Shown here: piece by piece, positions 23,498-43,669 of the stretch
How the letters are laid out: each line of letters begins with the position of its first letter
Position numbering within the stretch: the first letter of the stretch is position 1
Virus record (IMG/VR): IMGVR_UViG_3300022752_000021
Direction: 5' to 3' (one strand)
Length of the DNA stretch: 64,000 nt
Origin: a virus
Notes under the pieces: generated by a model
The model's database searches: none
The model's input: only the letters and a program-made list of their open reading frames with translations
Told to the model about the DNA's origin: nothing
Position numbers and translations under genes: made by a program

Positions 23498-23502
23498 AGC
23501 AT

Positions 23503-27291: not shown

Positions 27292-27732
27292 ATGAGATAC
27301 TCAGAAGCACGACAGATTTTAGCAGAAGCCATTGGTTATCTTGATGAAGCCTTTAAGGACACAAGCGACAAAGCCAATCGTTCGATGTTGGCACAATCGG
27401 CAAAACGCCACCCAATGACTCACACCCCATTGAATTTAGACAGACGGGGTGCATCCCATGATGAAAAGACCTCAGCAGCAAACATTCGAACATGGCAAGG
27501 TCACATTGACCGAGTGCATGATCTCGTCAAGCACCATCAAAGCAGGAAGCCAGGTTGGAGTGACACATACCGTGGGAATGTGTCACAAAAGGATATCAAT
27601 GCCAAGGTCAAGGAACTCAAGGGCATTCACAAGAAACTCACGGCAAGGCAAAAGAAGGCAGTCGCAAACCACAAGGCAGGAAACTTCGAAGCAAATCGTG
27701 ATCACTACATGTTGAACACGGACTTCGAATAA
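27292..27732 (+). CDS. Putative internal head protein
   Basis: TATAAATG late-type promoter; ILAE^A and YLDE^A sites followed by a basic His-rich body. Confidence 0.6.
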   Translation: MRYSEARQILAEAIGYLDEAFKDTSDKANRSMLAQSAKRHPMTHTPLNLDRRGASHDEKTSAANIRTWQGHIDRVHDLVKHHQSRKPGWSDTYRGNVSQKDINAKVKELKGIHKKLTARQKKAVANHKAGNFEANRDHYMLNTDFE

Positions 27733-27759
27733 AGTCACAGACTTCACAAAAGGAACAAG

Positions 27760-28644
27760 ATGAACAACCAATTCCTAAATCACCTAAACTCAATCACACC
27801 CCAAGGCAGAGCCAAGGATACATCCATCTTTGTTCCCGCGAAGGATCTCAATGAAGCCGTTCCTGATGTTGGACAGAACATCAGAGGAACACCAAAGAAG
27901 GCAGCAAGAAAATTTGCACAAGCCTTGCACAACTTGGCACAGGATCGCGGAAGTCTTGAGAACTACCAAGCCGCAAGAGAGCGTCTTACCAAGAAGAAGG
28001 CAAGCAATGCACAACGTCAAGGTCGAAACCTTGATAGGGCAGTTCAAAGTTTCAAGAAGAGAATGAGAATGGATGAAGCCCCCAAGTATGCACAGGATGC
28101 CATTCCCGCAGTTCCTGAACTTCTCATGCTCACCTACAGCAACAAGCACAAGCGAGATTCGGATGGCTTGAAGAAGTTTGTTGGCAAGGGTAAGAAGAAT
28201 CCAATGCCAGTTTATGAAGGTGCAGTGAAGGCTTCGATGGAGGATTGGTTGTCTGATCTTCCAAAGCCAGTGATCCGCGAACTCAAGGCAAAGCACGGCA
28301 AGATACTTGCCCGTACTGGTGGGCATGTTAAGGGAATCGGTGGAATCGGGGCGAAGAATTCAGCGAAACTTCATCAAAGCATTCAAGGTATTCTTCAAAA
28401 GCATAATGTTCCTAAACTGATGGGTTCACATGCGGAAGGTTCCAATGCCATTCAGATGTCGTTCCACACATACCACGGCGATCTCCATGAGTCGGAGGAT
28501 GAGAAGAGAGAATCAACCAAGAGCATGATTGCTCGTTTGGTTGCAAGGGGTCACAAGAAGATTGGAAAGCCAATTCCAAAGAATGTTCTTCGTGACATTG
28601 AGAAGGAACACAAGAACGAAGATGATGACTACGAGGACGATTGA
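27760..28644 (+). CDS. Putative internal head polyprotein with MNNQFL leader
   Basis: Leader shared with 34380; LNE^A, MDE^A, VYE^G, LHE^S sites. Confidence 0.6.
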   Translation: MNNQFLNHLNSITPQGRAKDTSIFVPAKDLNEAVPDVGQNIRGTPKKAARKFAQALHNLAQDRGSLENYQAARERLTKKKASNAQRQGRNLDRAVQSFKKRMRMDEAPKYAQDAIPAVPELLMLTYSNKHKRDSDGLKKFVGKGKKNPMPVYEGAVKASMEDWLSDLPKPVIRELKAKHGKILARTGGHVKGIGGIGAKNSAKLHQSIQGILQKHNVPKLMGSHAEGSNAIQMSFHTYHGDLHESEDEKRESTKSMIARLVARGHKKIGKPIPKNVLRDIEKEHKNEDDDYEDD

Positions 28645-28646
28645 AC

Positions 28647-28961
28647 ATGAAGTCATTCAATCAGTTTCTCACCGAAGCATCTTCCAATGAAAGATATGTG
28701 AAGATTAAGCAATCTGGTCATGGTGCGAATATTCGCAAGATCAATGACACTACATCCATGTTCTCACATCGTGGCATCGTCGGTCATGTGGTCAAGGGAT
28801 GGAGTCGCATGGGTGGTTGGGGATATCAGGTAGGGAACATTCGTGTGAATGGTAAGGACATTGGTCTAAATACCATACACGGAACTCATAAGACCATGAA
28901 TGATGCCATTCATAATGCATATTTGCATACGACACATCACATGGCAAAGGGAAATAAATGA
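28647..28961 (+). CDS. Putative internal head protein with capsid-targeting leader
   Basis: MKSFNQFLTE^A. Confidence 0.65.
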   Translation: MKSFNQFLTEASSNERYVKIKQSGHGANIRKINDTTSMFSHRGIVGHVVKGWSRMGGWGYQVGNIRVNGKDIGLNTIHGTHKTMNDAIHNAYLHTTHHMAKGNK

Positions 28962-29326
28962 AGTCATTCAATCGTTTCATCGCAGAGGCAAACGAGCAGA
29001 CGATTCAGAACTTTGTTGATTTTGCTGCACAGGAACTTGGTCTTGCAAATACACCAAATGTTCGTTTGGTTCAGGTGCGTGAAAACGGTATGACCACGGC
29101 ATCGTATTGTCCAGAGGACAAGAGCATTCGCGTTGTGAGTGGCAACAGAGCCACATTCGACATCTGCCGTTCTATTGCACACGAACTCGTCCATCAGATG
29201 CAGGATGAATGTGGTGATGAACTCGACGGAGACACAGGATCACCATGCGAGGACGAAGCAAATGCAATTGCTGGTCGTCTTATTCGGTTGTATGGCGGAA
29301 GCAACGAAGGCTTCTACGAGGAATAA
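28958..29326 (+). CDS. HEXXH metallopeptidase-like protein with capsid-targeting leader
   Basis: MKSFNRFIAE^A; SIAHELVHQMQ...EDEANA. Confidence 0.7.
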   Translation: MKSFNRFIAEANEQTIQNFVDFAAQELGLANTPNVRLVQVRENGMTTASYCPEDKSIRVVSGNRATFDICRSIAHELVHQMQDECGDELDGDTGSPCEDEANAIAGRLIRLYGGSNEGFYEE

Positions 29327-29329
29327 GAC

Positions 29330-30364
29330 ATGAAGACTTACAGAGAGTTCATCACAGAAGCAACTACCGTTGTAAAAGCAAAGAAACCCCCTCTCTCCTA
29401 TGCTGACAAGTTCAAGAAGTTGCGCGGCAGTCTTGCCAAGAGCAGCGATATCACAGCACAGGTAGCATCTGGTGATCATGGATCATGGATTCTTACGGGA
29501 CACGATTCTGATAGTAGTCTATCATCAGAAACTATTCGCAAGGCAAAGGATAGAGTATTTGGTAAGCGACAGGGCGACAGTCAGATTCTGTTCTTCCATA
29601 GAACTCACGGCATCGTAACTCACCCAGCAATTGGTCAATTGACTCACCAAGATATTCATACGAATCCAAGGCACCTCAGTCATCATATAGATCAAAATGT
29701 TCGTGCGAAAGTCACTGGAATGGAGAAGGCTGACATAATTGGACAAGGAAGAATCGAACATCACAAGAATGGTGGTGGGATGATTTCCATTGTGGGACGC
29801 AACCATGAAGGTGATGAGGCACCACTTCATCCATCCGTGCTTAGAACTCTTCGCAGGGCATACCCAAAGCACTTCATTCATGATGGACATGGTAATGAAC
29901 TCCATGAGAACTGGTCGTATGCACACGACTTTCATGAGATGCCGAACTCAGAGAAGCAGAAGTATGTCTACCATGTGACTACAGCCGCAAGAGCCGCGAA
30001 GATCGTCAAGGGTGGACTCAAGCCACGAAGTCCGAAAGGACGCACCAACTATCCAAGCCAAAAGGAACACACGCAGGGACACGCATTCGTGACCAACCAT
30101 CATGGCGTGGGGTATTGGGTGGATCAGACAGCCCATGCAGTCAATCGCCGCAAGCGTGAGGTTGGTGAGCGCGACTACGAAAACATTCATGTTGTGAAGT
30201 TCCCAATCGCAAATCTCAGCAAGTCCGCACGAAGAAAGTTCAAGTCTGACGATCTTGGAACCAAGGACTCGCGAAAGCACAGCGACTATGCCCGTGATCC
30301 GATCATAGATCCCTCGACGCATGAAGCACCATCCGCATTCAAGGTCAAGAAGAAAATCCGTTGA
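29330..30364 (+). CDS. Capsid-targeted two-module protein; C-terminal module ADP-ribosyltransferase-fold-like
   Basis: MKTYREFITE^A; internal LHE^N; YVYHVT...KIVKGGLKP...AFVT. Confidence 0.6.
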   Translation: MKTYREFITEATTVVKAKKPPLSYADKFKKLRGSLAKSSDITAQVASGDHGSWILTGHDSDSSLSSETIRKAKDRVFGKRQGDSQILFFHRTHGIVTHPAIGQLTHQDIHTNPRHLSHHIDQNVRAKVTGMEKADIIGQGRIEHHKNGGGMISIVGRNHEGDEAPLHPSVLRTLRRAYPKHFIHDGHGNELHENWSYAHDFHEMPNSEKQKYVYHVTTAARAAKIVKGGLKPRSPKGRTNYPSQKEHTQGHAFVTNHHGVGYWVDQTAHAVNRRKREVGERDYENIHVVKFPIANLSKSARRKFKSDDLGTKDSRKHSDYARDPIIDPSTHEAPSAFKVKKKIR

Positions 30365-30467
30365 ACCCATCAATCCACATAGCATTGATGGATTGATAGG
30401 TGGATTCGATACTGCCGAATGGTGGTATATGTCGGAACACGAAGATAACTAATCCCAGTCAGACGCA

Positions 30468-30501
30468 CAGGTGGGGGACACAATCCCCCACCTTGTTTTT
30501 T
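30468..30501 (+). terminator. Intrinsic terminator
   Basis: AGGTGGGGGA/TCCCCCACCT plus U-tract. Confidence 0.75.
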
Positions 30502-30513
30502 CTAAATATCAGT

Positions 30514-33309
30514 ATGAAAACAATACACATAGTTCCCATTGATGAAGCAAGCAAGCCCAAGCCATCTGGCAAGGCATTCCTCCTTCCTGGCTCCTACAGC
30601 CCATACACCATTGGACACCATGAGATGGCAAGGCAAGCCGCTGCACATGCTGCCTCGACGGGTCATACGCACTTCTACCATGGCATCGGTGCCGCATCGA
30701 AGCAATCGGCAGATGATCCGTTGACGCATGGACAAAAGCGTTCCGTCATTCGTTCTGGTCACAGGGACATTGCCAAGGAACACAAGGGAATGCAGTTTCA
30801 TACGACTGAAAAGGAACATGTGAGTCCATTCCATCAAGTGGCACATCTCGCAAGACAGGGACACAAGCACATCACCATCGGTCTTGGATCAGATCAGATG
30901 AAAGAAGGTGGTGTCAAGACCGCAATAGAGAGGCATGTGAAAAAGTACGGTGGAATATTGGACAAGGATGGCAAGGTTCACAAGGCAACGGTGAGTTTCC
31001 ATCAGATGGGTGCGGAGAGGCATGAAGGAGACATGCCAAGGCACGAAGTCCTTGCAAGGCTTCGCAAGGGAGACATGAGCGTGGCAAAGGCAGGACGGCT
31101 TCGCAAGGCAGTTGCATCTGGCGACACAGAACTCGCGCATGAACTCATGCCAAAACACATCAACAAGCCGAAGTACTTCAGCCTGATAAAGAAGCAACAG
31201 GCACGGGTAGCAAAGCCAAAGAAGAAGGCACTCGTCAAGGAAGGATGCATGTCGTTCCTTGATTTCATTGGGGAGGACATCGAACTCACCCATTCTATTG
31301 GGCGAAATACGGTAGAACCAACAAAACATTTTGGTTCCGAATACCTAAAGAAAAAAGAAGCAACCACATTTGGTGGCAATCAAAAGTTTCTCCACCACAA
31401 AAATCTTGGCGAGTTTCATCCCAATTATGAACTCCATAGGCATTCATATGAAGAACGAACTCCCACACGCGATGGTGTGGGGAAAAGACATATTCATGAT
31501 TACAGCATAGTACACAAGCCATCCAACACGGTTGTTGGCGGATTTGTTGGAAATGGTGGTAAGGTATCACGAAAGAGTGGATTCAAAGAGGGTAAGGGAG
31601 ATGATGTAAGCATCATCAACCTTCATATTCACCCAACACATTCCAAGAAGAAGATTGGTGCATCTCTACCAATTCAGGCATACAAGCACTTGCATAAACT
31701 AGGACACTCCGTTGAGAGTGGTTCATTGCAGTCGCCTGGTGGAGCGCATGTTTGGAATACATTGCGTAAAGATCCTGAAGTCAAGAAGCATGTGCGATAT
31801 CATGATCCATTTGAAGGAAGATCATATGCTGCACACAAACTCCCGACAGGGGAGATATGGCAAGACGAACAGGATGATAGAACATTGATTCTACATCGTA
31901 AGCCAAAGAAGAAGGCACTCGTCGCTGAAAGATACATGTCGTTTCTTGATTTCATTGGGGAGGACATCGAACTCATTCCCGTACATCGTGATACGCATGT
32001 TGAGAAGAGGAAGGCAGCAGATGTCCACAAGGCATATGGTTCAAAAACCTATTCATCCGACAAGGTGGTGAAGAGAAAGAATCTTGGGCAGATTCATCCA
32101 GGATATGATTTGCATCAACATTCTGTCGAGATAAACACAGGTCGTGGCGACCAAAGGGCAGTCAAGCACAAGTTCACAATCGTGCATAGGGCAAGCGGAG
32201 ATGTCGCTGGTGAAATGCACGCTTGGGGCGGAAAGTTGCACCCGACAAAAGGAATTGTATATGGAACCAAGGGTAAAGGTCTGAAAGTATCGCACCTTGA
32301 AGTTCATCCAGATCACCGCGAAAAGAAGATAGGCACATCATTGCCAGTAGAGATGTATCGTCATCTTCATCGCCGTGGTCATGCCATTCAGTCCGATGCC
32401 ATACAAAGCCATGGTGCTGCTAATGTGTGGAACACCATGCGTCATGATCGTGAACTAAAGAAGCATATGATGATTCATGACAGCGGTGGTGAGAAGAATA
32501 GTAGGGGAAATGCATTTGAACCTCGCGCACACAAAAGACCAGAAAGCCATATCTGGTATCAACACAGCAGATCGTGGAGTCGCGGTGGCGAAAAAGTCGA
32601 GGGATCGGGTGGTGATGAACCAGAAACCGTCAAGACACTCATTCTCTCTGGCAAGAAGCGCAAGAAGAAGACCGTCAAGGAAGACATTGAAATGGCAGAT
32701 GTGTCACAGAAACCAACAACTAGCAAACATGCTCTTCGTTGGAAAACGAGAGCAGACCTACCAAAGTCAAAAGCATCAAGGTTGACAAAGGGATACACAA
32801 TACACACTTTTCATGGACCACACGATTCACCAAAGAATCCCGTAACACAATACCACACCATAGTTCATGATGCATCAGGAGATGTTGTTGGTGAACTTGA
32901 GACTGCTAGACGTGAACGTGGTGGTAATATGGAACATGCCGTGACTAGCACAAGAATACATGCCGATCACACACAAAAGAAGATTGGAAAGTCTCTTGCT
33001 TTAGCAGCATACAAGCATCTCGCAAAGACAAGAATTTTGTCAAGTTCAATATTGCAGAGTCCTGGTGGAGCCTCTGTGTGGAATAGATTGAGAAAAGATC
33101 CAAAACTAAAGGGTAGAGTGTTTCACCATAGCACAAGTGGAGTAGTACCCGCACATGATATTCCAGATAAAATGATCTGGGCGCATGAGACAAAAGTCAC
33201 AAAGAGCAAGGGAACCCCCGAATCTCTTCCCCCATCCAAACGCCATGCATCCGAGCATAGCAAGGTTCTTGGTTCACGCCTCACAATTCGACCTTTGCAG
33301 AAATCATAA
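30514..33309 (+). CDS. Polyprotein-like: cytidylyltransferase-like domain plus three GNAT-like repeats
   Basis: GSYSPYTIGH (HxGH-class-like); three units of (I/V)Hxxxx(K/E)KKIGxSL...Y(K/R)HL...QSxG(G/A)xxVWN; repeated linkers. Confidence 0.65.
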   Translation: MKTIHIVPIDEASKPKPSGKAFLLPGSYSPYTIGHHEMARQAAAHAASTGHTHFYHGIGAASKQSADDPLTHGQKRSVIRSGHRDIAKEHKGMQFHTTEKEHVSPFHQVAHLARQGHKHITIGLGSDQMKEGGVKTAIERHVKKYGGILDKDGKVHKATVSFHQMGAERHEGDMPRHEVLARLRKGDMSVAKAGRLRKAVASGDTELAHELMPKHINKPKYFSLIKKQQARVAKPKKKALVKEGCMSFLDFIGEDIELTHSIGRNTVEPTKHFGSEYLKKKEATTFGGNQKFLHHKNLGEFHPNYELHRHSYEERTPTRDGVGKRHIHDYSIVHKPSNTVVGGFVGNGGKVSRKSGFKEGKGDDVSIINLHIHPTHSKKKIGASLPIQAYKHLHKLGHSVESGSLQSPGGAHVWNTLRKDPEVKKHVRYHDPFEGRSYAAHKLPTGEIWQDEQDDRTLILHRKPKKKALVAERYMSFLDFIGEDIELIPVHRDTHVEKRKAADVHKAYGSKTYSSDKVVKRKNLGQIHPGYDLHQHSVEINTGRGDQRAVKHKFTIVHRASGDVAGEMHAWGGKLHPTKGIVYGTKGKGLKVSHLEVHPDHREKKIGTSLPVEMYRHLHRRGHAIQSDAIQSHGAANVWNTMRHDRELKKHMMIHDSGGEKNSRGNAFEPRAHKRPESHIWYQHSRSWSRGGEKVEGSGGDEPETVKTLILSGKKRKKKTVKEDIEMADVSQKPTTSKHALRWKTRADLPKSKASRLTKGYTIHTFHGPHDSPKNPVTQYHTIVHDASGDVVGELETARRERGGNMEHAVTSTRIHADHTQKKIGKSLALAAYKHLAKTRILSSSILQSPGGASVWNRLRKDPKLKGRVFHHSTSGVVPAHDIPDKMIWAHETKVTKSKGTPESLPPSKRHASEHSKVLGSRLTIRPLQKS
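31213..31288 (+). repeat. 76-bp linker repeat, copy 1 (copy 2 at 31900-31975)
   Basis: Encodes KPKKKALVxExxMSFLDFIGEDIEL. Confidence 0.9.
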
Positions 33310-33341
33310 ATAATAGAAGCGTTCTAAAATAGGAAACAAAT

Positions 33342-34367
33342 ATGAACTCACCAAATCTGCAACAGAGAATCTATCTTGCGAAGGCACTCAACGAGAACAC
33401 CGATACACTTTTCGATCATCCTGAGATGAACGAAGCAGTGACTCGCAAGCACTTTCAACAAGTCGCTGACCTCATCAAGGCACACCCAGATGCAAAGAAG
33501 AGGGCAGAACTAGCCGCTCACCATGCTGAAATCTTCAAGAAGCAGAATCCAAGATTCGATCATGAACGATTCTTCAAGGCAGCAAATGCCGAGAAGCCGA
33601 TGAATGAAGAAGAAATGGGTGAAGAGTCCATCACCGAAGGTGCAAAGCGCAAGGCTCGACTCCTTCGTGCGATGACGAGTGGAAAAAATTTCGGCAATCT
33701 AGAAATTGCTAAGAAACGAGAAACTGCTTATGATTCAGAGTTGGGTCGTAGAGTTGCTCGCAAACTCCGCAAGGGTGGCGCACCAAAGAGAACCATAGCA
33801 AAGTTCTTCAACAAAGACACGAAGACATCTCCTGCGGTTGACAAGGCAATTGCCAAGTTCAATGAAAAGGAACTTGCAATACAACAAAAACTACGCGCAA
33901 TGGGCAAGAATATTTCTGAAGGTATGGATCTTGATGAGGGTTCCTATGTCCACTCAAAGGGTCAACTCAAGAAGTCAATCAAGGGATCGAAGCGTGAAAT
34001 CGTTAAAGCAATGAAGAAGGGCAACAAGAAGGAAGCCTCATTCTGGATGCAGAACAAGAAGGATGCAGAGGAGCAACTCAATGAAGGTTCCCTTGGTCAG
34101 AAGCGTGTTAAGCGTGTTTTCAAATCTAAGCGCGACGATAGGAAATTTCGAAACTCTGCCATGGCAAAGGTTCTGAATTTGACTACAAGAAAAGTCTTGC
34201 GTGCTGGTGCTGATCCGCGAGACGTTGCTACACGAATGAAGGATTCATCGGCTAATCTACGCACTTTGAATGCTCTTCAGCGATTCAATGACCTAGCAAG
34301 AATTAAGAAGTCACAGGGACTTGTGAGAACTATTTCTGCCAAAAGAGCGAAGTCTGCACAAAAGTAA
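33342..34367 (+). CDS. Putative internal head polyprotein
   Basis: CATAAATA promoter; LNE, MNE^A, MNE, ITE^G, ISE^G, LDE^G, LNE^G sites separating basic modules. Confidence 0.65.
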   Translation: MNSPNLQQRIYLAKALNENTDTLFDHPEMNEAVTRKHFQQVADLIKAHPDAKKRAELAAHHAEIFKKQNPRFDHERFFKAANAEKPMNEEEMGEESITEGAKRKARLLRAMTSGKNFGNLEIAKKRETAYDSELGRRVARKLRKGGAPKRTIAKFFNKDTKTSPAVDKAIAKFNEKELAIQQKLRAMGKNISEGMDLDEGSYVHSKGQLKKSIKGSKREIVKAMKKGNKKEASFWMQNKKDAEEQLNEGSLGQKRVKRVFKSKRDDRKFRNSAMAKVLNLTTRKVLRAGADPRDVATRMKDSSANLRTLNALQRFNDLARIKKSQGLVRTISAKRAKSAQK

Positions 34368-34379
34368 GAAATAACCAAC

Positions 34380-35069
34380 ATGAACAATCAATTCCTACAA
34401 CATCTCAACTCCATCACTCCACAAGGTAGAGCAAAAGACACCAAGATCTTTATTCCTGCTGAAGAAATTCAAGAAGGATCGCGTGGTACGGCTAGACATG
34501 AACGCCGTATCAAGTCACTAGAGCGCAAGAAGAAAGCCCTTTATGGTTACTTGGAAAATAGACCAAGAGGAATACGGATGAGTCCAGAACAAGAAAAAGA
34601 AGGCGAAAGAGTACGGTCACAACCTGGCTACGAAGCAAAGAAAGAAAAATATCGCAAGTTGTCTAAAGGTTTGTTTTCAGCAGACTATGCACAGATCGCT
34701 CGCGAACGCCGTCGTGCGGGACTTCACCCAGAACCACCTACCCGAACTCTGAAGACTACTATAGACAGAACAGGTTCATCCCGCATAACATCACAACCAA
34801 CATTCAAGCCAGACGTAGACTCTGGTTATGTTGCACCCCGCGTACCAAAGAAGGTTCTCAAGTACCGTGAAACAAGCAAATTCAAGGGACAAGTGGGAAG
34901 AGCCGCAAAAAAGATGAACGAAGAAGTTAAGAAGAAGTCTGCGAAGAAGGTGGTTCGCAAATTGAAGAAGACTGGTCGTTCGATCAAAAGAGCAATAAAG
35001 GGTCTATCAAACATTCTTTCCACACCACAAGATAACGTCGATTACATGATGACAGGTAGAAAGTTCTAA
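34380..35069 (+). CDS. Putative internal head protein with MNNQFL leader
   Basis: Leader shared with 27760; IQE^G, MNE^E sites. Confidence 0.6.
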   Translation: MNNQFLQHLNSITPQGRAKDTKIFIPAEEIQEGSRGTARHERRIKSLERKKKALYGYLENRPRGIRMSPEQEKEGERVRSQPGYEAKKEKYRKLSKGLFSADYAQIARERRRAGLHPEPPTRTLKTTIDRTGSSRITSQPTFKPDVDSGYVAPRVPKKVLKYRETSKFKGQVGRAAKKMNEEVKKKSAKKVVRKLKKTGRSIKRAIKGLSNILSTPQDNVDYMMTGRKF

Positions 35070-35084
35070 AAAGGAAAATCAAAA

Positions 35085-36230
35085 ATGCGTACAAGAGATA
35101 TCAAGGCACTCACCGAAACAATCGCATCTGTAGTCGATCCCGTCGATGCTGATCGTGCAAAGGCTCTCCAAGAGGGCTACCTCAACTCACTCACAGAGAA
35201 GGCTCGTCAGGTTATATCTGAGGCAGTTGAAACGAAGAATGAAGATGAAGTAGAAGCCATAATGAAGCGTCTTGCTGCCAAGGCACTCAAGAAAGCAAAG
35301 AAGAAGGCAAGAAGATCATCTGGTGATGCTGCCTATGCTGGCATTAATCCTTCGGCAGCAAAAACTGATCCCGATATGAAGAACCCAGGCAGAGTTGCAG
35401 AAGAACTCATTAATGAAGTCGCAGCACCTGGCATGGAAGATTGGGCATCCGATCCCAAGGTCAAGGCATCCTTCAAGAAGCAATACGGCAAGAGGTGGAA
35501 GGAAGTCATGTACGGTCGCTCATGGAACCTTGCCAAGAAGGAAAAGGAATTGGGCGTTAATGAGGAAGCCGAACTCGACCTCGCAGAGGGAGTCAGTGCA
35601 AAGCGTATGCGAATCATTCGCAAGCATCATGTGTCGGGGAAGCCCATCAAAGGCGAAGTCGCAGACTTCATGCAGCGTTCCTTCAAGAAGAAGTTCTACA
35701 AGGACAAGGAAAAGTTCGGTGGAGCAACATCAGCAGTTCTTGGAAGAGCAAGGCTCAAGCACTCTGCTATGAAGGCAAAGGGTCTTGCTGAAGCCGAGCA
35801 GTTGGATGAGGCTGGTTACAAGAAGTTGATGCGTCTCAAGAAGAAGGCATACAACACAAGAAATCCAAAACTCGTAAGAGCAGCAGCAGAACAAGAAGCC
35901 AAGGTTGCCGCAAACATGGCTAGACGTGGTGGAGCATCTGCTGAGGCAGTCAAGGCTGGTGGAAGTCGCATTGGCAAGAGTGGCAAGTACACTCAGAAGG
36001 CAGGACAACTTGCCAATCAGCGCGACCGTGCATTTAGAAAGTTCCGTGGTAGAGCCGCAGGAGCAGAAGTATTCAATGCACCTGGTCCTGAAAAGAGAAA
36101 GCGTCAACAGGCTCAGGCTGAATTCAGCAACCGCGCTCGTAGCGGTGACTTCGGACAGAACAACCAAGAGGGTATGCGTCCTCGCTATAACTATCTCAAG
36201 AGAACTGGTAAACTCAAGACATACAAGTAA
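35085..36230 (+). CDS. Putative internal head polyprotein
   Basis: LQE^G, ISE^A, INE^V, LAE^G, LAE^A, LDE^A sites; basic modules. Confidence 0.6.
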   Translation: MRTRDIKALTETIASVVDPVDADRAKALQEGYLNSLTEKARQVISEAVETKNEDEVEAIMKRLAAKALKKAKKKARRSSGDAAYAGINPSAAKTDPDMKNPGRVAEELINEVAAPGMEDWASDPKVKASFKKQYGKRWKEVMYGRSWNLAKKEKELGVNEEAELDLAEGVSAKRMRIIRKHHVSGKPIKGEVADFMQRSFKKKFYKDKEKFGGATSAVLGRARLKHSAMKAKGLAEAEQLDEAGYKKLMRLKKKAYNTRNPKLVRAAAEQEAKVAANMARRGGASAEAVKAGGSRIGKSGKYTQKAGQLANQRDRAFRKFRGRAAGAEVFNAPGPEKRKRQQAQAEFSNRARSGDFGQNNQEGMRPRYNYLKRTGKLKTYK

Positions 36231-36436
36231 AAGGAGACTATATCATGGCAAAAGTGAAGACACCAGCAAGACCAAGAATCCGTGACCTCAAGCATCAGTT
36301 GTTTATCAAGACACTGAACCGAAAGAAGAACCTTGAGGGTTGCACTTTAAGAAATGCTAAATATTCAAACAAGTGTTGATATTCTAGAACCTATCAGCAC
36401 AATCACATAGTTTCGAAACTACGAAAGGTAAGAACA

Positions 36437-36946
36437 ATGGCAATCAATCGCAAGGGATACACATCACTCATCGAATCTGTTCAAGAAGCAGTTTCACAAC
36501 CAGTAACCGAAGCAACTCGCTCCAAGGCTATGAAGACCTATCGCATGAACAAGGCTGCAAGGGCTGCTGGAAAAGCAGTTCCATCACTAAGGGAAGCACG
36601 ATGGGCAAGTGGTGAAGCACTCTCACACCAATTAAATAATATGCAGAATAATGCTCCAACACCAACCGCTTCAGACTCAGGAAAGGGCAAAGTTCGTAGT
36701 CGCAAGAATCCACTAGCAAGAACTTCTAGTGGAACTAGTTCAAGCACTAATGCTTCTTCAAGCCCAAAAGGTCCAGCAGCATCAAGTGCATCTTCAGTCG
36801 TTTCTGAAGATTGGGACATCCTTGACGAGATTCTTGCAGAGGGAATGGAACTCTATGGTGAAGACGGTCTTGCAGAGATCCTTGCTGATTTCGCGGAGAC
36901 TGGCGAGATCTCAGACGAACTCGCACTTCTTCTCAGCGACGAATAA
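36437..36946 (+). CDS. Putative internal head/core protein
   Basis: VQE^A, VTE^A, VSE^D sites; basic core and acidic tail. Confidence 0.55.
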   Translation: MAINRKGYTSLIESVQEAVSQPVTEATRSKAMKTYRMNKAARAAGKAVPSLREARWASGEALSHQLNNMQNNAPTPTASDSGKGKVRSRKNPLARTSSGTSSSTNASSSPKGPAASSASSVVSEDWDILDEILAEGMELYGEDGLAEILADFAETGEISDELALLLSDE

Positions 36947-36970: not shown

Positions 36971-37005
36971 AAACAAGGGAGAGGGAAACCTCTCTCTTGT
37001 TTTTT
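36971..37005. terminator. Bidirectional terminator
   Basis: AAACAAGGGAGAGG/CCTCTCTCTTGTTT between convergent genes. Confidence 0.7.
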
Positions 37006-37570
37006 AAGCGGATTCAGCCTTCGCTTTATTGGCTTCATACCAAGCCTTGCTGGAAGTCTTCATCTTGTCCTTGTTGACTTGGTAATAATCCTTGTGATAA
37101 TCCTTCCTCTTGTCTCTATTTCTTTCATACCAAATCTTGTTCACAGCCTTCCTCTTGACCTTATTGACTTCGTAATATTTCTTGTGATAATCCTTGTTCT
37201 TGTCCTTGTTGGCTTCGCGGTAAGCCTTCCAATAAACCTTCCGTCGTTCTTTCCGTTCCTTCTCAGTCAATCCCTTCGAACTCCCATCTCCACCCATGGT
37301 CACATTGTATTCACCCAGACTACAATGTGTCCTATACAACCAAATGTAATGGTGTTCCATATAGTTCAATGTATGTTCACCATCCTCAGACTCATATAAA
37401 GTCTCTATGGTAAATGAGTCAACACCATACTTTTTTATGGCATGGTGTAATGGGTATTTTGGTTTTTTAAAGTTCTTTAGGTGTTCTTTCCAGCGTTCTT
37501 TGACAGACTTACTGGTATACCCAACATAAACTGGTTTAGAGTCCTTGCGGACAAGATAAATAGTATGCAT
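37004..37570 (-). CDS. GIY-YIG (Seg-like) homing endonuclease, copy A
   Basis: TIYLV...VYVGYT...RWKEH...AIKKYG...YNVTMGGDG. Confidence 0.88.
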   Translation of the reverse strand: MHTIYLVRKDSKPVYVGYTSKSVKERWKEHLKNFKKPKYPLHHAIKKYGVDSFTIETLYESEDGEHTLNYMEHHYIWLYRTHCSLGEYNVTMGGDGSSKGLTEKERKERRKVYWKAYREANKDKNKDYHKKYYEVNKVKRKAVNKIWYERNRDKRKDYHKDYYQVNKDKMKTSSKAWYEANKAKAESA

Positions 37571-37588
37571 TCGATCCTCCTAAGATCA

Positions 37589-37628: not shown

Positions 37629-37705
37629 TTTTCTACATATTATGTATTGATTATGACTATTTGGAACAAACCTTTTATTTCATAAATGCTCATTGGAGGT
37701 TTATT

Positions 37706-38275
37706 ATGGGGAACTCTTCAAACTCCCTGTACACTAGCATCACTCGCGTTCTTATGGAGAGCAATGACCCTGATTTATCAGGGAAATATACATTGTTTAC
37801 TCTTTATGCAGACAACACTTCTGTATTGCACATTTTTGAGGATAGGGAAACCTTTGAAGCCATGAAATACAAGTTTACATCAAACGACGGCATCAAGCGT
37901 CTTGGCGCATCAAAACTACCAGAGAACACAACTTTCAAGAAACTCTCAGAATCAATAGAGCGCAAGTTCAATGTGCCAAAGGAAACAATCTCAGTCCGCA
38001 CACATGAACCCGCAAGACGAGAAGAGCCACAGCCTAGACAGGTTGTGAATGAAATGCCGACCGCTCCAAAGCCACAACAGAAGAAGCCCAAGAGTGGATC
38101 GGTTCTAGAGGGCGTTCTGAACGGCAGAGAAAGATTCAGAAACCAACCGATGCAAGGGATGCCAATGGCACAGCCAGAGAGGACAGAGCCTACAATCAAC
38201 TCTTTCCGCCCTGCAACGAATCAAAAGATTGACCTATCAAAACTCAACAATGGCGATAGACCATTGCTAGGATGA
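37706..38275 (+). CDS. Hypothetical late protein
   Basis: CATAAATG, GGAGG RBS; LME^S, VNE^M sites. Confidence 0.6.
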   Translation: MGNSSNSLYTSITRVLMESNDPDLSGKYTLFTLYADNTSVLHIFEDRETFEAMKYKFTSNDGIKRLGASKLPENTTFKKLSESIERKFNVPKETISVRTHEPARREEPQPRQVVNEMPTAPKPQQKKPKSGSVLEGVLNGRERFRNQPMQGMPMAQPERTEPTINSFRPATNQKIDLSKLNNGDRPLLG

Positions 38276-38279
38276 CCAC

Positions 38280-38744
38280 ATGGCAGAAAAGAAAGAACCA
38301 AAATCATCAAACGAAAAAACATACCTTGTTCGGTATAGACTTCCTGGTGAAAAAGGAAGAAATCCGCGCAAGGTTGTGATTCAAGCACTGAATCAGTCTG
38401 ATGCAAAGAAGACTGCCATTGCAACCATACCAAGCGCAGAGATCGTCGGTGGTCCAAAAGAACTTGATGAAAATGTTCTTGATTTTGCCAAACGTGTGGG
38501 ACAGTTTGCTGCAAGATGTGCGGGAAAAGTTTGCCATGCTTATGCAAAGACTCCCGTCAATGCCAAGGCAGGAACAGTATCACAGATTCGTAAGCAGATG
38601 ACGCGAGAAATAGCGCGTGGAACTGGTGATAAACTCATCACTGCTGGTGGTGGAGTACCAGAAAGAATCAGGATTCAAATAAAGAATCCAAAGAAGCAAA
38701 AGAGTTCAAGATCACCAAAGAGAAAACTTCGTAAGAAGAAGTGA
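38280..38744 (+). CDS. Basic hypothetical protein
   Basis: ORF; LDE^N site. Confidence 0.55.
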   Translation: MAEKKEPKSSNEKTYLVRYRLPGEKGRNPRKVVIQALNQSDAKKTAIATIPSAEIVGGPKELDENVLDFAKRVGQFAARCAGKVCHAYAKTPVNAKAGTVSQIRKQMTREIARGTGDKLITAGGGVPERIRIQIKNPKKQKSSRSPKRKLRKKK

Positions 38745-39500
38745 TCAAATAAACGGATTGGAAAAGTTGTTCTCCAATACAGTCACATCTCCCTTTTTTC
38801 CGCTGAGTGGAGCAATGTTGTATGGGGATTTGGAATTCACCGGAATTCTAAACGATAATTCAAATGTGAATTGATATGTTTTGCCACCTGTGCTTTTGGG
38901 TTGAACCCTTACTCTATAGTCAAGAGTTGCCGATGTGCCAAATCTTGGAATTGGTTTCATTCCTGCCTTCTTAAGACGAGCATTGAGTCTATTTGGGTCT
39001 GCTCCACCCAGGAGAAAAAACCCATGAGAACCTATGTTCAAATAATAGGTTTTTTTCTTATTGTAATAGTCTTCCATGTTTGTTGCAGGAATGCTCTTTC
39101 TTATCTCACGGAACTTCTTTCTATCCACATCATAATTTGGCTTTACTGTTGGTCGTTGTGGATTTGTCTTCAATGGCAACAGTTTCCATTGCTTGTTTAT
39201 CTCTCGGAGTGCGCCGACTTCTGTCGCAAGATTTGCAAGGAACATCTTCTCTTCGTCTTCGGGTGAGATATCTCCAAACGACCATTTCTTTTCTGATAAA
39301 TCATACTTCAATGCAAGAGAACCACCAGATGCGGCGGAAATTTTGAGTTCTACATTCACTGCCGTTCCATTGCTTTTTATCACAAGATCTGGAACATCAG
39401 ATTTCGCAGATGCCGGTACAAATGATGCTTCCACAAGTTTCTTCTTTTTAAGAAACTTTACTGCATTGTTTTCATACATGAACCCTTGTTGTGTTGCCAT
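38745..39500 (-). CDS. PD-(D/E)XK nuclease-like protein
   Basis: GFMYE...VPDLVI...NVELK. Confidence 0.6.
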   Translation of the reverse strand: MATQQGFMYENNAVKFLKKKKLVEASFVPASAKSDVPDLVIKSNGTAVNVELKISAASGGSLALKYDLSEKKWSFGDISPEDEEKMFLANLATEVGALREINKQWKLLPLKTNPQRPTVKPNYDVDRKKFREIRKSIPATNMEDYYNKKKTYYLNIGSHGFFLLGGADPNRLNARLKKAGMKPIPRFGTSATLDYRVRVQPKSTGGKTYQFTFELSFRIPVNSKSPYNIAPLSGKKGDVTVLENNFSNPFI

Positions 39501-39563
39501 GTTTTATTCTCCGTTGAAATATCTAGGAATCTAAAGAACATCAAAATAGCCATACATATTCAC

Positions 39564-40139
39564 ATGACCCATACACTTCACAAGATCGCAGGAATCGACT
39601 ATTCTCTCTGTGGTCCTTGCATCTGCGTCTTCGAAGGCGGTGGAAGATTCTCGTTCGATGACTGCTGCTTCTACTTCCTCAGCGATACAAAGAAGTATGC
39701 CAAGGTCTTCATGGGAAACATTCATGGAGAGTTGTTCTCCGAATGGGAAGAGGACATGGAGAGGTATCAGAGCATCGCTGATTGGGCAATAGACATCCTC
39801 AAGGATGTCAAGCAAGTCGCCCTAGAAGGCTATGCGTACTCGGCAACTGGCAAGGTGTTTCATATCGCTGAGAACACTGGTGTGCTGAAGTACAAGTTGT
39901 TTCAAGAAGGTATTCCCGTTACCATCATTCCACCCACAGAAGTAAAGAAGTTTGGTTGTGGTAAGGGCAACGGAGACAAGACTGCTATGCACGAAGCATT
40001 TCTCAAGGAAACTGGCATAGATCTCAAGTCAATCATGACACCCGACAAGAAGGACATTACATCACCAGTATCAGATGTGATAGATGCCTATTACATCTGC
40101 AAGAAGATGCATGGCGAGATTCTTCTCGCCACTATTTGA
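39564..40139 (+). CDS. RuvC-like Holliday junction resolvase
   Basis: IAGIDYS, VALEGY, VKKFGCGKGNGDK, DVIDAY. Confidence 0.85.
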   Translation: MTHTLHKIAGIDYSLCGPCICVFEGGGRFSFDDCCFYFLSDTKKYAKVFMGNIHGELFSEWEEDMERYQSIADWAIDILKDVKQVALEGYAYSATGKVFHIAENTGVLKYKLFQEGIPVTIIPPTEVKKFGCGKGNGDKTAMHEAFLKETGIDLKSIMTPDKKDITSPVSDVIDAYYICKKMHGEILLATI

Positions 40140-41001
40140 CCAACTTTGATCGAATCTCCTTGACGATTCTCTGTGTAGATTGCTTCTGCACTTTTGTTGC
40201 AAGACCACCATCACCAAAGATCTTGACCTTTGCCTCTTCGGGAATCTCAGTCTTGATGTCCTCAAGCAACTTGACATTGTCTGCTACTGCCTCTTCCGTC
40301 TTCTTGTTCTTGAAGATAAAGTATCCTACTGAAATCGCAGACGCGAGGAATCCGATTATGAATACAACAAGACCAACCGTGGCAATCTCCTGATAGTAGT
40401 ATTGGTTTGCTGCTGCAAGACCAACTGAAACAAATCCCGCACACAGAATAATTCCACCAATGACCTTGTGGAAATATGCCACGATCATTCCAGCGACAAT
40501 CATTGCAAATCCAACCATCCAAAAGATTCTCACGATCTTCTGAATCTCGGCAGTGGATGCTGCAACAAGATCATCGTACTTCTTTTTCCAATCGCTGTTG
40601 GTGTTCTCAAGTTTCTCAATCTGCTCAAGAAGAGGTTGAACATTCTCCGCAGAAAGATCCTTCTGCACCATGTCAACTTCCTTTTGTATTGAGATGGCAG
40701 CATTCTCTACCTTGTTGCTCTCAACTACAATCTTGTTTGCCTCTTCAGCAACAACAGGATCTTCAGTCTTGTCTTTTATGACAGTAGCAGATTGCGTGAT
40801 TGCAATAGATGAATTCTGAATCTCTTCTGCGTTTGCTTTTACAACCGCATTTGATTCTGTTACTTTCTTGACATCATCGTATACAACTGTTGCTACAGGA
40901 GTTTCTGGTTTTATGATAGATGGTGTTGATGTGCATTTTGCACCAATCATCATGATTCCCATTGAAAGGATTGCCGCAACTCTAGTCACAATACTATTCA
41001 T
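40132..41001 (-). CDS. Membrane protein: lipoprotein-like N-terminus, coiled coil, C-terminal TM segments
   Basis: ILSMGIMMIGAKC; heptads; about 3 hydrophobic segments. Confidence 0.6.
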   Translation of the reverse strand: MNSIVTRVAAILSMGIMMIGAKCTSTPSIIKPETPVATVVYDDVKKVTESNAVVKANAEEIQNSSIAITQSATVIKDKTEDPVVAEEANKIVVESNKVENAAISIQKEVDMVQKDLSAENVQPLLEQIEKLENTNSDWKKKYDDLVAASTAEIQKIVRIFWMVGFAMIVAGMIVAYFHKVIGGIILCAGFVSVGLAAANQYYYQEIATVGLVVFIIGFLASAISVGYFIFKNKKTEEAVADNVKLLEDIKTEIPEEAKVKIFGDGGLATKVQKQSTQRIVKEIRSKLVK

Positions 41002-42011
41002 CTTCGCACCATCGACTTTCTTTTCTTCAGGGACTTTGCTCTCTTACGATTTGCTGCTGCTCTGTTCTTCTTTGCTTTTCGTGCGGCTTTCTTTGCTTGC
41101 TTTGAGCGGCGAGCCTTTTCTGCTCCACCCATCTTCACACAAGCCTTCCCACCCTTCTTAGCAAGTTTCTGTCCTGCTGGACACTTGAACACGATTTTCT
41201 TCTTTCCACCACGAATGACAATCTTGCGCTTTGCTCCTTCAGCAAGCATCTCAAGTTCTTCTGATGGAATGAGCGAGAGAACTTGATCAACACTGATGGT
41301 ATCAACACCATAAATCACATAATGCGTTTCCATCAATGATGTGTTTGCGATGTCAAGAGATAGTTTCATTTCAACATCCTCATTCGTCGGCTGTGGTGCC
41401 TTAGCAAACTTTGGATTTGCATAATTCTTTGATGGGAATCCACCTGGTCCTTCACGAACCAACTTCACTTGAACTTGCTTCTTTCCTTTTCCTATAGTAG
41501 AGACAAGACCTTCATGTTCCTCACCACCATGGGTATCGATGTCGAACTGATGCTGATGCTTCTTGAACTGATCAAGCATATGATGCTTTGCCATGTTGAT
41601 GTGGTGGTGTGCCTGAAACATGGCATGAAGATGGTGTGCATTCGAATCTATCTCACCATGCACAGCAGCGAGTGCATTGGCACGACCTTTCTCGCTCTTG
41701 TTTGTCTTTTCCACGAACTTTGTGGCATGTGCCTTGAGTCCTTCTACGCTTCTCTTGCCGGTTGTTCGTGCTGCCGTGTTGGAATACTGCCTGACTATGT
41801 CGTGAAGTCTCTTGTTGCCAACCAACTTGCGGGAGAACTCATGAACCTCTGGTGTAAGATGCTTCTGTGCAGCAGCAAGATGCTTCGTGATCGCGGCATC
41901 TCTCTTTGGAGACAGAGATAGTTTGGTCTTCTTACTGATGGCAAGATCTGGGGCATGAATGCCTTCTCCCTGCAACTGAGAAACATCTGGATGGTTAGTG
42001 ATCTTCTTCAT
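40998..42011 (-). CDS. C-terminal half of an RNA-ligase-like nucleotidyltransferase fused to basic modules
   Basis: EEHEGLV...VKLVR...FPSKNY; LME^T, LAE^G sites. Confidence 0.55.
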   Translation of the reverse strand: MKKITNHPDVSQLQGEGIHAPDLAISKKTKLSLSPKRDAAITKHLAAAQKHLTPEVHEFSRKLVGNKRLHDIVRQYSNTAARTTGKRSVEGLKAHATKFVEKTNKSEKGRANALAAVHGEIDSNAHHLHAMFQAHHHINMAKHHMLDQFKKHQHQFDIDTHGGEEHEGLVSTIGKGKKQVQVKLVREGPGGFPSKNYANPKFAKAPQPTNEDVEMKLSLDIANTSLMETHYVIYGVDTISVDQVLSLIPSEELEMLAEGAKRKIVIRGGKKKIVFKCPAGQKLAKKGGKACVKMGGAEKARRSKQAKKAARKAKKNRAAANRKRAKSLKKRKSMVRR

Positions 42012-42769
42012 GCCTTTGCTCCTGGCTTTGGAAGAGCATACTGCGAATGTGCAGCCAGAGTCAGTTTCTTTCCGCTCTTCACCTTGTATGTGATTGTGTT
42101 TGGCTTTGCCGTTGTCTGATTCTCACCATCTGCCTCATGATGCACAAGATCTGCCTGAAACGCATGACCAGGCTTGATGTTCATGGTCTTGACATGATGA
42201 AGGAGAGGGACAAGGTGCTTTACATAGTGTTCCTTGCCAGTTGCATGAACATCCTCTGGAGTCTTGAAGACATGCTCGACCTGTCCATGCTTTGACTTGA
42301 CAAAATGGGTTCCATCATGCTCTCTGCCTACCACCACGCTCATTCCACCATCGACCTTGAGCGAAGGCTCATGCCCCTTGGTGTGCTTTCCCTTGAACCT
42401 TTGATGCATGGCAGTCATGTGCCTGATTGCCTCGCTTGGGTTTCCGTGGTAGATCATGTCCCCGACATGCTCAAGGTGTCCCGTGAATGGCTTCGGCTTC
42501 TTTTTCTGCGTTGCTTCGAAGATTGGTGCCTTCTTCTTCTTTCTTCGCCAGATTCCCTTGCCAAACTGCTTTTGGCTATACTTCGGTGATACAGGCTCTC
42601 CGTCCGAAACCACTGCAATGCCAGGAGCAGATGCCGTATTTGCAACCTCTTCGTTGAGTATTAGTTCTAGGATGTCCATCTTGTCCTGATCCTCAAGTGC
42701 CTCGGACATGAGTCTACGGGCTTCTTCGTTCAGGTTTTTTCGCATGAAGTTTTGGTATGTTTCTTTCAT
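42008..42769 (-). CDS. N-terminal half of an RNA-ligase-like nucleotidyltransferase with head-protein-like leader
   Basis: GHLEH...LKVDG (KxDG)...FQADL...PNTITY; LNE^E, IFE^A sites. Confidence 0.6.
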   Translation of the reverse strand: MKETYQNFMRKNLNEEARRLMSEALEDQDKMDILELILNEEVANTASAPGIAVVSDGEPVSPKYSQKQFGKGIWRRKKKKAPIFEATQKKKPKPFTGHLEHVGDMIYHGNPSEAIRHMTAMHQRFKGKHTKGHEPSLKVDGGMSVVVGREHDGTHFVKSKHGQVEHVFKTPEDVHATGKEHYVKHLVPLLHHVKTMNIKPGHAFQADLVHHEADGENQTTAKPNTITYKVKSGKKLTLAAHSQYALPKPGAKA

Positions 42770-43143
42770 ATCTTCCTCAGTTCTTGCAAAAGAGAATCTT
42801 CCATTGGTATTACTGCAAGATCTGCCTCTGGTATTTCGTGACGAAGCACATTGAGATAGTAGAGGAATGTCTTGAGTCTCGGATGGAACTTCTCCTCCAT
42901 CCTATAGAACAATATTCTATTTCCAACCTCTATTCCAAACACATTCGTAAGGACAATGAGGTGGTTTATGATCAATCGGTTTCGTTGTGCAATATCCCCA
43001 TCATCACGATTCATCAATCTCTTCAAATACTTGATTCTGTCTATATCTTCATAGAACTCTTCAAGAGAAGAGCATTGTGGGTTATCATAGTTTTCAAGTG
43101 CGAAGGTCAAAAAGTCTTCATCACGAATACGGTTGTCCGACAT
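42766..43143 (-). CDS. Conserved T4-like hypothetical protein
   Basis: YDNPQC...EFYEDIDRIKYLKRL...RLIINHLIVLTNVFG. Confidence 0.8.
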   Translation of the reverse strand: MSDNRIRDEDFLTFALENYDNPQCSSLEEFYEDIDRIKYLKRLMNRDDGDIAQRNRLIINHLIVLTNVFGIEVGNRILFYRMEEKFHPRLKTFLYYLNVLRHEIPEADLAVIPMEDSLLQELRKI

Positions 43144-43150
43144 TAGAAAC

Positions 43151-43669
43151 TCAGTCGTGGTTCTTCTTTTCTGATGTCATGTAGAGTTCTGCATCGATCA
43201 TGTAGAGTCCACCAGGAACCATAGATGTGTTGATCTTCAACTTACCATGCATACGAGAACGAAGGAAGATTTCATCGTCAACATATGGATCACCAGAGAT
43301 TGGGTTATCGCTTTCGCGTCTTCCATACTGATAGACATTGAATGTGCCGTTTGTGGCATCCTTGACACCGAAATTCATGTCACCATCATCCACATGAAGA
43401 CCGATTGTTTGCAACTGAAGGAATAGGCGGTTCAAACGATCCATTGGGTCGAGGTGCTGACCAGTGAGGAACCTCTTGATGAATGCATTGATGACTTGCA
43501 TGTTCTCTGGCTTCTCGACATAGAACAAGGCTCTATCATCCAACGCAGAGCGGTGGTTTGTGTTATATGTGGATTCCAATAGTGCTTCGACAAGTGTCTG
43601 ATTCTTGCTCTTGTCAAGAGTATTTGCGGCAACATTGGATAATGAGTCTCTGCGAGTGAATGGGTTCAT
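43151..43669 (-). CDS. Hypothetical protein
   Basis: GGAG RBS before MNPFTRR; LVE^A, LLE^S sites. Confidence 0.6.
   Translation of the reverse strand: MNPFTRRDSLSNVAANTLDKSKNQTLVEALLESTYNTNHRSALDDRALFYVEKPENMQVINAFIKRFLTGQHLDPMDRLNRLFLQLQTIGLHVDDGDMNFGVKDATNGTFNVYQYGRRESDNPISGDPYVDDEIFLRSRMHGKLKINTSMVPGGLYMIDAELYMTSEKKNHD

Follow-up and report, generated by a model that had tools for sequence, protein, structure and literature searches.

The viral DNA analysed here is a stretch of 64,000 nucleotides (IMG/VR record IMGVR_UViG_3300022752_000021; hereafter the window) from an uncultured freshwater T4-like myovirus, which encodes CobS (16533-17792), CobT (23434-26040), gp32 (46201-47214) and ribonucleotide reductase (58485-60428). 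Its span 27292-43669 contains a locus whose products resemble the internal proteins of T4, with capsid-targeting sequences (CTS) or other recurring leaders at their N-termini and many putative sites of the head protease inside the chains. A megablast comparison of the complete span with 50,697 phage records gave zero matches, as did tblastn with the 35085 protein (genes are named here by their first coordinate), so that the phage belongs to a lineage without a cultured close relative. The open reading frames (ORFs) of the span agree with the preliminary description, which was made from the sequence alone. At 27292-36946, ten plus-strand genes are tightly packed in two units, each closed by a strong terminator-like hairpin (Table 1). 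The preliminary description had counted about 14 genes in the set; this number is to be read with care, as five genes of the span are unrelated and the minus-strand genes and 37706-38744 are only tentative members.

Table 1. Genes and signals at the locus and around it (aa, amino acids; SAM, S-adenosylmethionine; ART, ADP-ribosyltransferase; a caret marks a proposed cut; L001, L002 and L004 are related IMG/VR loci, and G001 is the longer record behind L004)
Coordinates	Strand	Feature	Remarks
27292-27732	+	Leader class 3 (MRYSEARQILAE^A, LDE^A) with basic cargo	Same leader on 2 paralogs in L002 and 3 in L004
27760-28644	+	Leader class 2 (MNNQFLNHLNSITPQGRAKDT...LNE^A), polyprotein of at least 3 modules	Alignment A2
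28647-28961	+	CTS-led (MKSFNQFLTE^A) basic His-rich protein, 104 aa	Orthologs in L002 and L004
28958-29326	+	Acidic protein with HExxH motif behind a CTS (MKSFNRFIAE^A); may be a metallopeptidase	Sub-threshold Pfam match to Peptidase_M78 (E 0.013)
29330-30364	+	CTS-led (MKTYREFITE^A) protein: His-rich module, LHE^N, conserved 155-aa module	ART-like label unproven
30514-31242	+	HIGH-type (GSYSPYTIGH) cytidylyltransferase-like domain, N-terminal IDE^A	Alignment A6
31213-31275	+	Long linker 1, KPKKKALVKE^GC-MSFLDFIGE^DIEL	Vestigial internal CTS
31276-31962	+	GNAT-like module 1	Includes long linker 2 (31900-31962)
31963-32682	+	GNAT-like module 2	Ends in short linker KKRKKKTVKE^DIEM
32683-33309	+	GNAT-like module 3	Alignment A3
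33342-34367	+	Basic polyprotein, 8 [LIVM]xE sites (5 then A/G/S)	Module of about 50 aa, GSYVHSKGQLKK...QLNE^G
34380-35069	+	Leader class 2 (MNNQFLQHLNSITPQG...IQE^G), basic protein	Conserved tail ...TPQDNVDYMMTGRKF
35085-36230	+	Basic polyprotein, 10 [LIVM]xE sites	Alignment A1: indels bounded by AVE^/INE^V and EVE^/LAE^G
36437-36946	+	Acidic/Ser-rich protein, 8 [LIVM]xE sites	Repeat number varies among relatives
9611-10144	+	CTS-led (MKSYREFISE^A) SAM-lyase-family protein	Outside the span; Pfam PF23780 E 2.8e-14
37706-38744	+	Two conserved genes (189 and 154 aa), tentative members	No leader class recognised; G001 ortholog of the first at rank 6 for motif excess
40998-42769	-	DUF6267 over two overlapping ORFs, tentative member	Pfam DUF6267 E 5e-12 and 2e-6
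43151-43669	-	172-aa protein, LVE^A and LLE^S near N-terminus, tentative member	G001 ortholog at rank 5 for motif excess
9580-9587	+	T4-type late-promoter-like TATAAATA	24 nt upstream of the CTS-led SAM-lyase gene at 9611
30469-30493	+	Strong intrinsic-terminator-like hairpin, end of first transcription unit	TCTAAATA comes next, before 30514
36977-36998	+	Terminator-like hairpin, end of second unit	
37004-37570	-	GIY-YIG endonuclease	Unrelated to locus
38745-39500	-	PD-(D/E)xK-like ORF	Unrelated to locus
39564-40139		RuvC-like resolvase	Unrelated to locus
40132-41001	-	Membrane protein	Unrelated to locus
42766-43143	-	DUF7207	Unrelated to locus

The CTS of T4 is MKTYQEFIAE (PMC8442874), and in T4 IPIII residues 4 and 7 serve targeting and residues 8 and 10 serve processing (PMC9026906). 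A six-frame search of the window with the pattern MK[ST][FYW]xxF[LIVM]xE gave exactly four matches, at 9611, 28647, 28958 and 29330, where roughly 0.001 would be expected by chance. Each match is the start of an ORF, and all four fit the narrower MK[ST][FY]xxF[LI]xE and retain the T4-type determinants, namely the aromatic residue at 4, Phe at 7, Ile or Leu at 8 and Glu at 10. These are the genes (three in the span plus 9611) on which T4-type leaders had been pointed out before. Homologs of the 9611 protein also have CTS-like starts, MKTYKEFIQD in cyanophage P-TIM68 and MKTFSEFLGE in a Paraglaciecola phage. Other genes of the locus carry different leaders. Class 2, MNNQFL[NQ]HLNSITPQGRAKDT...[LI]xE^[AG] (also written MNNQFLNHLNSITPQG...), is found at 27760 and 34380, and class 3 at 27292. 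Both classes recur in related contigs with differing cargo behind them; the class 3 paralogs in L002 and L004 carry unrelated cargo, one GNAT-like module included.

The preliminary description called the products of the locus rich in Lys, Arg and His (K/R/H). This fits 11 proteins (27292, 27760, 28647, 29330, 30514, 33342, 34380, 35085, 38280 and, on the minus strand, 40998 and 42008), which contain 22-27% K+R+H and have isoelectric points of 9.6-10.6; it does not fit 28958, 36437, 37706 and minus-strand 43151, whose products are acidic or neutral. We compared the frequency of short Glu-terminated motifs in 16 locus proteins with that in 2000 composition-preserving shuffles, taking 24 other proteins of the same window as control. 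The motif [LIVM]xE[AGS] occurs 38 times in the locus proteins against 11.9 +/- 3.4 expected (0 of 2000 shuffles as high) and 23 times in the controls against 24.8 expected. Similarly, [LI]xE[AG] is found 23 times in the locus (5.0 expected) and 8 times in the controls (10.2 expected), and Ala or Gly follows 44% of the [LIVM]xE sites of the locus and 13% of those of the controls. It is evident that within the window the excess is confined to the locus, which bears out the [L/I/M/V]-x-E linkers described earlier.

No Peptidase_S77 gene was found in the 64-kb window. The 156.6-kb record G001 (86% complete), which lies behind L004 and holds the same locus, encodes a gp21-type Peptidase_S77 (E 3e-39) between the portal and a 374-aa acidic scaffold, with gp23 next. 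The sequence ...ALRE^AAAP of this gp23 stands at the position of the T4 gp23 cut, which we take to be FLTE^AEIGG. The propeptide of T4 gp23 comprises 65 residues (PMC9026906). When the 167 ORFs of G001 were ranked by [LIVM]xE[AGS] excess, locus homologs made up 7 of the top 11, headed by the ortholog of 33342 at rank 1, and the scaffold and the protease came at ranks 4 and 11. Thus, the motif marks the expected protease substrates together with the locus. Ranks 2 and 3 went, probably by chance, to ORFs outside the locus and the head cluster, 107612-108136 (-) and 15014-16408 (+); the former resembles a deaminase-type enzyme.

The 931-aa protein encoded at 30514-33309 consists of a HIGH-type cytidylyltransferase-like domain and three diverged copies of one GNAT-like module. 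The AlphaFold (AF2) model of module 2 had a mean confidence (pLDDT) of 84.5, and all of the best 50 VIA matches to the module structure were GNAT acetyltransferases (Z 6.1-8.4, 110-150 residues aligned). GNATs were also the top hits of Foldseek, with weak E values (>= 0.014); Pfam GNAT families match 16 of 50 members of the module family, and its profile hit RibT with E 0.001. The module repeated at 31276-33309 has a GNAT fold, from which acetyltransferase activity is predicted. The cytidylyltransferase-like domain can be read as a nucleotidyltransferase (NTase) with moderate confidence. The HIGH motif and an Atlas comparison, in which 26 of 30 named hits were PF01467 viral clusters at 0.93-0.94, speak for this earlier label; Pfam CTP_transf_like stays below its cut-off (E 0.06) and a PDB profile search with the module found no match.

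A search of 1.84 billion representatives with the profile of the GNAT module collected only 159 proteins at E <= 1e-3. Short hits with an initial Met number 91, and in 52 of these the N-terminus is MK[TSR][FY]x[QE][FYL][IL]xE, usually followed by DIE[LVM]. Stand-alone relatives begin MKSFLSFISEDIEL, comparable with internal linker 1 of the 931-aa protein, whose long linkers read KPKKKALV[KA]E-[GR][CY]-MSFLDFIGE-DIEL. Since these linkers retain in frame what looks like a former N-terminal CTS, the protein is best explained as a fusion of CTS-led genes. Other junctions of the family have short linkers without Met, KKRKKKTVKE-DIEM in the window and AVTE-DIEL in L001. Internal translation starts are thereby ruled out as the general separator of the modules, and cutting at the [VLI]-x-E site, not internal initiation, would be common to all junctions. 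The two long linkers are nearly identical in DNA over about 75 nt and join GNAT modules that are only 40% identical in protein, a pattern suggesting that the cassette was recently copied or gene-converted. Distant members of the family occur in giant proteins on unknown contigs, namely P0080 (1697 aa; NUDIX, several GNATs and SAM-lyase/DUF3293), P0135 (1769 aa; NUDIX and GNAT) and P0048 (987 aa; mCpol and GNAT), which are polyvalent-protein-like.

Six related IMG/VR loci (L002/L003, L004/L005/L006 and L001) are syntenic with the window yet differ by whole modules. In L002 and L004, proteins of the 27760 type have extra modules bounded by LKE^A, MTE^A and LHE^. The AVPDVGQN... module comes right after the leader (LNE^A) both in the window and in L002 and is C-terminal after SVAE^A in L004, where the leader is fused straight to APKYVQDAIPAVP (INE^A). 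Another module, AVSTNDPNRG...RLFPMTE^, belongs to the 27760-type protein in L002 and to the 34380-type protein in L004. Orthologs of 34380 measure 82 aa (L002), 342 aa (L004) and 569 aa (L001), with leader and tail in common and different modules between them. The 155-aa module of the 29330 protein stands directly behind the CTS in L004; the L002 protein P0153 adds an extra module after it via IQE^A, and in P0155 the same extra module precedes it. The GSYVHSK...E^G module (about 50 aa) of the 33342 protein is duplicated in tandem in L004. Moreover, P0161 joins the ART-like module through an internal leader, ...KTFMRYLNE^A, to the HExxH protein, whose counterpart in the window has its own CTS-led gene (28958); this is a second, independent fusion.

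Because gaps were placed arbitrarily when the low-complexity families (27292, 33342, 34380 and 36437) were aligned globally with MAFFT, junctions were counted only at indels with conserved flanks. In our own reading of the alignments, Glu occupies P1, give or take one residue, at about 13 of 22 junctions, against 4.2 expected from a Glu frequency of 6.8% (binomial p ~4e-5). Module boundaries of homologs thus do tend to fall at Glu sites, a check that had been proposed beforehand, and the mix-and-match of modules that had been suggested is seen among the related contigs as insertion, loss, duplication and transfer between proteins.

The CTS is also found far from this locus. A degenerate DNA pattern for MK[ST][FY]x[QE]FIxEA matched at least 120 IMG/VR loci. 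Among the matches listed, nearly all lie at ORF starts, and 121 ORFs of at least 60 aa form 42 cargo clusters, for which Pfam recognised CTP_transf_like (the largest, 30 members), DUF6267, S-AdoMet lyase and GNAT as well as glucosaminidase, DPBB lytic transglycosylase, DUF6321 and DUF5661. The recognisable domains of the window locus (NTase, DUF6267, SAM lyase and GNAT) therefore occur elsewhere directly behind a canonical CTS. The commonest cargo among these matches is a protein of about 440 aa (L124 4096-5427 and 29 similar ORFs), which starts MKSFFQFISEATS..QAQRLGL.GDGHGGWYD and has a cytidylyltransferase-like domain at residues 125-228.

The remaining domain labels of the preliminary description fared less well than GNAT, for which there is fold evidence. 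The ART-like label of the module at 29885-30361 has a single lead, an Atlas feature similarity of 0.91 to PARP/Arr clusters; no sequence match was found in Pfam, PHROG or PDB, the Glu of its conserved SSHE is not invariant, and the single-sequence AF2 model of the 29330 protein (pLDDT 37.6) was unusable. The peptidase label comes from the HExxH motif and the sub-threshold Pfam match in Table 1. As for the ligase, the DUF6267 pair would qualify by a weak motif reading alone (KVDG, EGLV). PDB sequence and profile searches yielded no usable match to the ART-like module, the HExxH protein and the N-terminal half of DUF6267, and no protein of the locus matched Phage_Mu_F at E <= 0.1, which speaks against a MuF-type toxin architecture.

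The N-terminal ORF of the DUF6267 pair has a CTS-like start, MKETYQNFM, and six [LIVM]xE sites in its first 85 aa, and the terminal basic domain of the C-terminal ORF matches the head-scaffold family phrog_3503 (E 1.3e-5). The two ORFs overlap by ATGA, and the split is kept in L002 and L004. In L001 (10185-10795, -) the DUF6267 core is gone, leaving an 80-aa leader ORF and a 123-aa basic tail ORF, and an unsplit DUF6267 protein of 384 aa stands behind a canonical CTS in L045 (947-2098, -).

With regard to transcription, a T4-late-promoter-like motif stands ahead of each unit (TATAAATG at 27226 and TCTAAATA before 30514), and CATAAATA lies before 33342; the variants preceding 27292, 30514, 33342 and 37706 are weaker than that of 9611. 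The count of late-promoter motifs in the window was not above that in shuffles, and a sigma-70 promoter scan was likewise at shuffle level. In the neighbourhood, two GIY-YIG homing-endonuclease-like paralogs, 37004-37570 (-) and 43770-44327 (+), both with the N-terminus MHTIYLV.KDSKPVYVGYT, flank the variable block at 37.6-43.7 kb. The slot between the 38280 gene and the RuvC-like gene is itself variable; it is occupied in the window by a 251-aa ORF with a PD...ELK motif and by a different, unrelated gene each in L002 (18373-19725) and L004 (17766-18917). The CobT-like protein has a highly acidic low-complexity insert of about 150 residues, rich in D, E, G and S, which is shared with L002 and L004.

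We interpret these features as an expanded internal-protein locus, encoding polyproteins that would be targeted by CTS or other leaders, segmented by the head protease and injected with the DNA, and we give this reading a probability of about 0.68. What is directly seen here comprises the leaders, the site enrichment, the shuffling at Glu sites, the GNAT fold, a gp21-type protease encoded by a relative, and the occurrence of these domains behind a CTS elsewhere. According to the proposed mechanism, the proteins would be made late and enter the prohead core through their N-terminal leaders, four of them by T4-type CTS and at least four others by one of the two further classes. The gp21-type prohead protease would remove the leader and cut exposed [LIVM]-x-E^[A/G/S/D/E] linkers, and each gene would give several products that stay with the DNA inside the head. 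Some would be small basic peptides; others would be enzyme domains, among them the three GNAT acetyltransferase folds, the HIGH-type nucleotidyltransferase, the SAM-lyase-family protein and the HExxH protein. Their ejection into the host at infection would most likely serve counter-defence or early takeover. On this reading, the polyproteins arose by in-frame fusion of separate CTS-led genes, with the CTS persisting as an internal linker cassette that would double as a recombination joint for module shuffling. In short, a reshuffled set of enzymes and basic peptides probably enters the host together with the phage DNA.

Several points weigh against this interpretation. Packaging, cleavage, ejection and function are inferred, and the gp21-type protease was seen only in a relative at 46% identity. 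The label 'late' comes from T4-type late-promoter-like motifs alone, so that late expression is weakly supported. The N-terminus of the 931-aa protein, MKTIHIVPIDE^A, is no canonical CTS. Several [LIVM]xE sites lie within folded domains (such as residues 131, 300 and 794 of the same protein), and not all sites would be cleavable. Moreover, linkers in general often hold acidic residues.

Other explanations of the same features were weighed. The proteins might be head-core or DNA-condensing parts, that is, basic scaffold accessories like T4 gp22/gp67/gp68 or IPIII rather than effectors, which aid prohead building or neutralise the charge of DNA and whose cut peptides mostly leave the head. In its favour, no fold can be recognised in the 33342, 34380 and 35085 proteins, which are of low complexity and contain 23-27% K/R/H, and a PHROG named 'head scaffolding protein' is matched by the C-terminal end of the 40998 ORF. 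The same motif excess is seen in the true scaffold of G001, and T4 heads assemble more slowly in an IPIII mutant (PMC9026906). Nevertheless, the three GNAT, NTase, SAM-lyase and HExxH domains have no obvious role in assembly, and the gene content is highly variable among close relatives, a pattern typically seen in arms-race cargo rather than structural components. For the locus as a whole we consider this explanation unlikely; it may well apply to the basic peptide modules only, which is compatible with an injected internal-protein locus. Slightly less probable still is that the chains stay uncut, as ordinary multidomain proteins or nested genes with internal starts, in which case the x-x-E cassettes would serve as joints for recombination or as flexible acidic linkers instead of protease sites. 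The near-identity of the two long linkers between diverged GNAT modules would suit such joints, each of these linkers has an ATG (the first preceded by AAGGAAGG), and delivery without cutting is possible for polyvalent proteins of other phages (PMC5512222). On the other hand, TVKE^DIEM and AVTE^DIEL occupy the same junctions with neither Met nor Shine-Dalgarno sequence, the biases for a hydrophobic P3 and for Ala or Gly at P1' exceed what a generic acidic linker would give, and the known protease substrates of G001 have the same motif excess.

It could also be supposed that the proteins remain in the cytoplasm instead of entering the head, and that their similar N-termini reflect common descent or a translation-initiation region; just ten residues are in common. 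This we regard as very improbable, because the decapeptide, with its functional residues kept, heads the 42 unrelated cargo clusters as well as the internal proteins of T4 itself, and the leaders differ in nucleotide sequence. The same decapeptide on unrelated cargo points to selection on the peptide, not to descent of whole genes.

Proteins injected with phage DNA act before phage gene expression and are thus the first line of counter-defence. To our knowledge, few of them have known roles, such as T4 Ip1-3 (against GmrSD), Alt and the Dar proteins of P1. The present locus suggests that the T4 address tag is used far beyond T-even coliphages, apparently for loading enzymes, and that evolution concatenates and reshuffles cargo at protease sites. 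A SAM lyase, for example, could starve SAM-dependent restriction or BREX on entry. We tentatively go further and propose, at slightly less than even odds, that the CTS in natural T4-like phages is both an address label and a cut-and-join cassette: CTS-led effector genes would be fused, shuffled and re-separated by the head protease, and one promoter would yield a stoichiometric, rapidly re-assortable enzyme cocktail (acetyltransferases, nucleotidyltransferase, SAM lyase) in the capsid, delivered before phage gene expression. If this is true, the grammar of CTS and x-x-E would permit a sequence-only listing of hundreds of injected phage effectors in metagenomes. The locus also offers a testable sequence rule for injected effectors in uncultured phages and, for T4 capsids, which already serve as delivery vehicles, natural designs by which several cargoes could be loaded.

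Among known systems, the closest are IPI/IPII/IPIII of T-even phages, of which diverse CTS-tagged forms have been described (PMC3012670) and of which Ip1-3 of T4 inhibit GmrSD (PMC12373910). They share with the window locus nearly the same N-terminal decapeptide with its functional positions, a gp21-type protease in the lineage, many basic products, hypervariability of the locus and the presumed role, ejection with DNA for counter-defence (PMC3012670, PMC9026906, PMC12373910). They differ in being single small non-enzymatic inhibitors that are cut once, whereas the window locus, in a distant, uncultured freshwater T4-like phage, has enzyme folds, multi-module genes with internal sites, the CTS as an internal linker and two additional leader classes. 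T4 Alt, a packaged ADP-ribosyltransferase, is likewise a head-packaged enzyme that is trimmed by gp21 (at both ends) and injected; it is a single enzyme with a different leader, and the ART-like module here, which is unverified, would if real belong to another clade, given its Atlas lead to PARP/Arr.

Polyvalent proteins, for which travel with the DNA is likewise predicted, also carry several conflict-type domains (GNAT, ART, NTase, peptidase) on a single chain (Iyer et al. 2017, PMC5512222). At least two distinct domains of this type are found in the 30514-33309 protein (NTase-like and three GNAT folds) and in P0161 (ART-like and HExxH). In the published descriptions, polyvalent proteins mainly contain MPTase or other peptidase domains of their own, whereas we propose the head-maturation protease, acting at x-x-E, and CTS targeting for the window locus, where delivery with the DNA is predicted from the leaders alone. 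The giant phages phiKZ, 201phi2-1 and SPN3US cut ejection or inner-body proteins after Glu at a short motif by a gp21-related protease, some at several sites, and use the propeptides as targeting signals (PMC5694885). However, these propeptides exceed 100 aa and lack the T4-type decapeptide, the proteins are unrelated, and module shuffling at the sites is not reported.

Since CTS-tagged internal proteins and polyvalent proteins are already known as general concepts, our claim is narrower than 'a new system'; the locus is a variant of the T4 internal-protein system that resembles polyvalent proteins. A literature search of limited coverage found no paper describing enzyme cargo, segmented chains and shuffling together. 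What is new compared with these systems is the enzyme cargo behind the T4 tag in distant environmental T4-like phages, the multi-module chains with predicted segmentation at head-protease-type sites and apparent reuse of the CTS as an internal cassette, and the documented shuffling of modules at these putative cutting sites.

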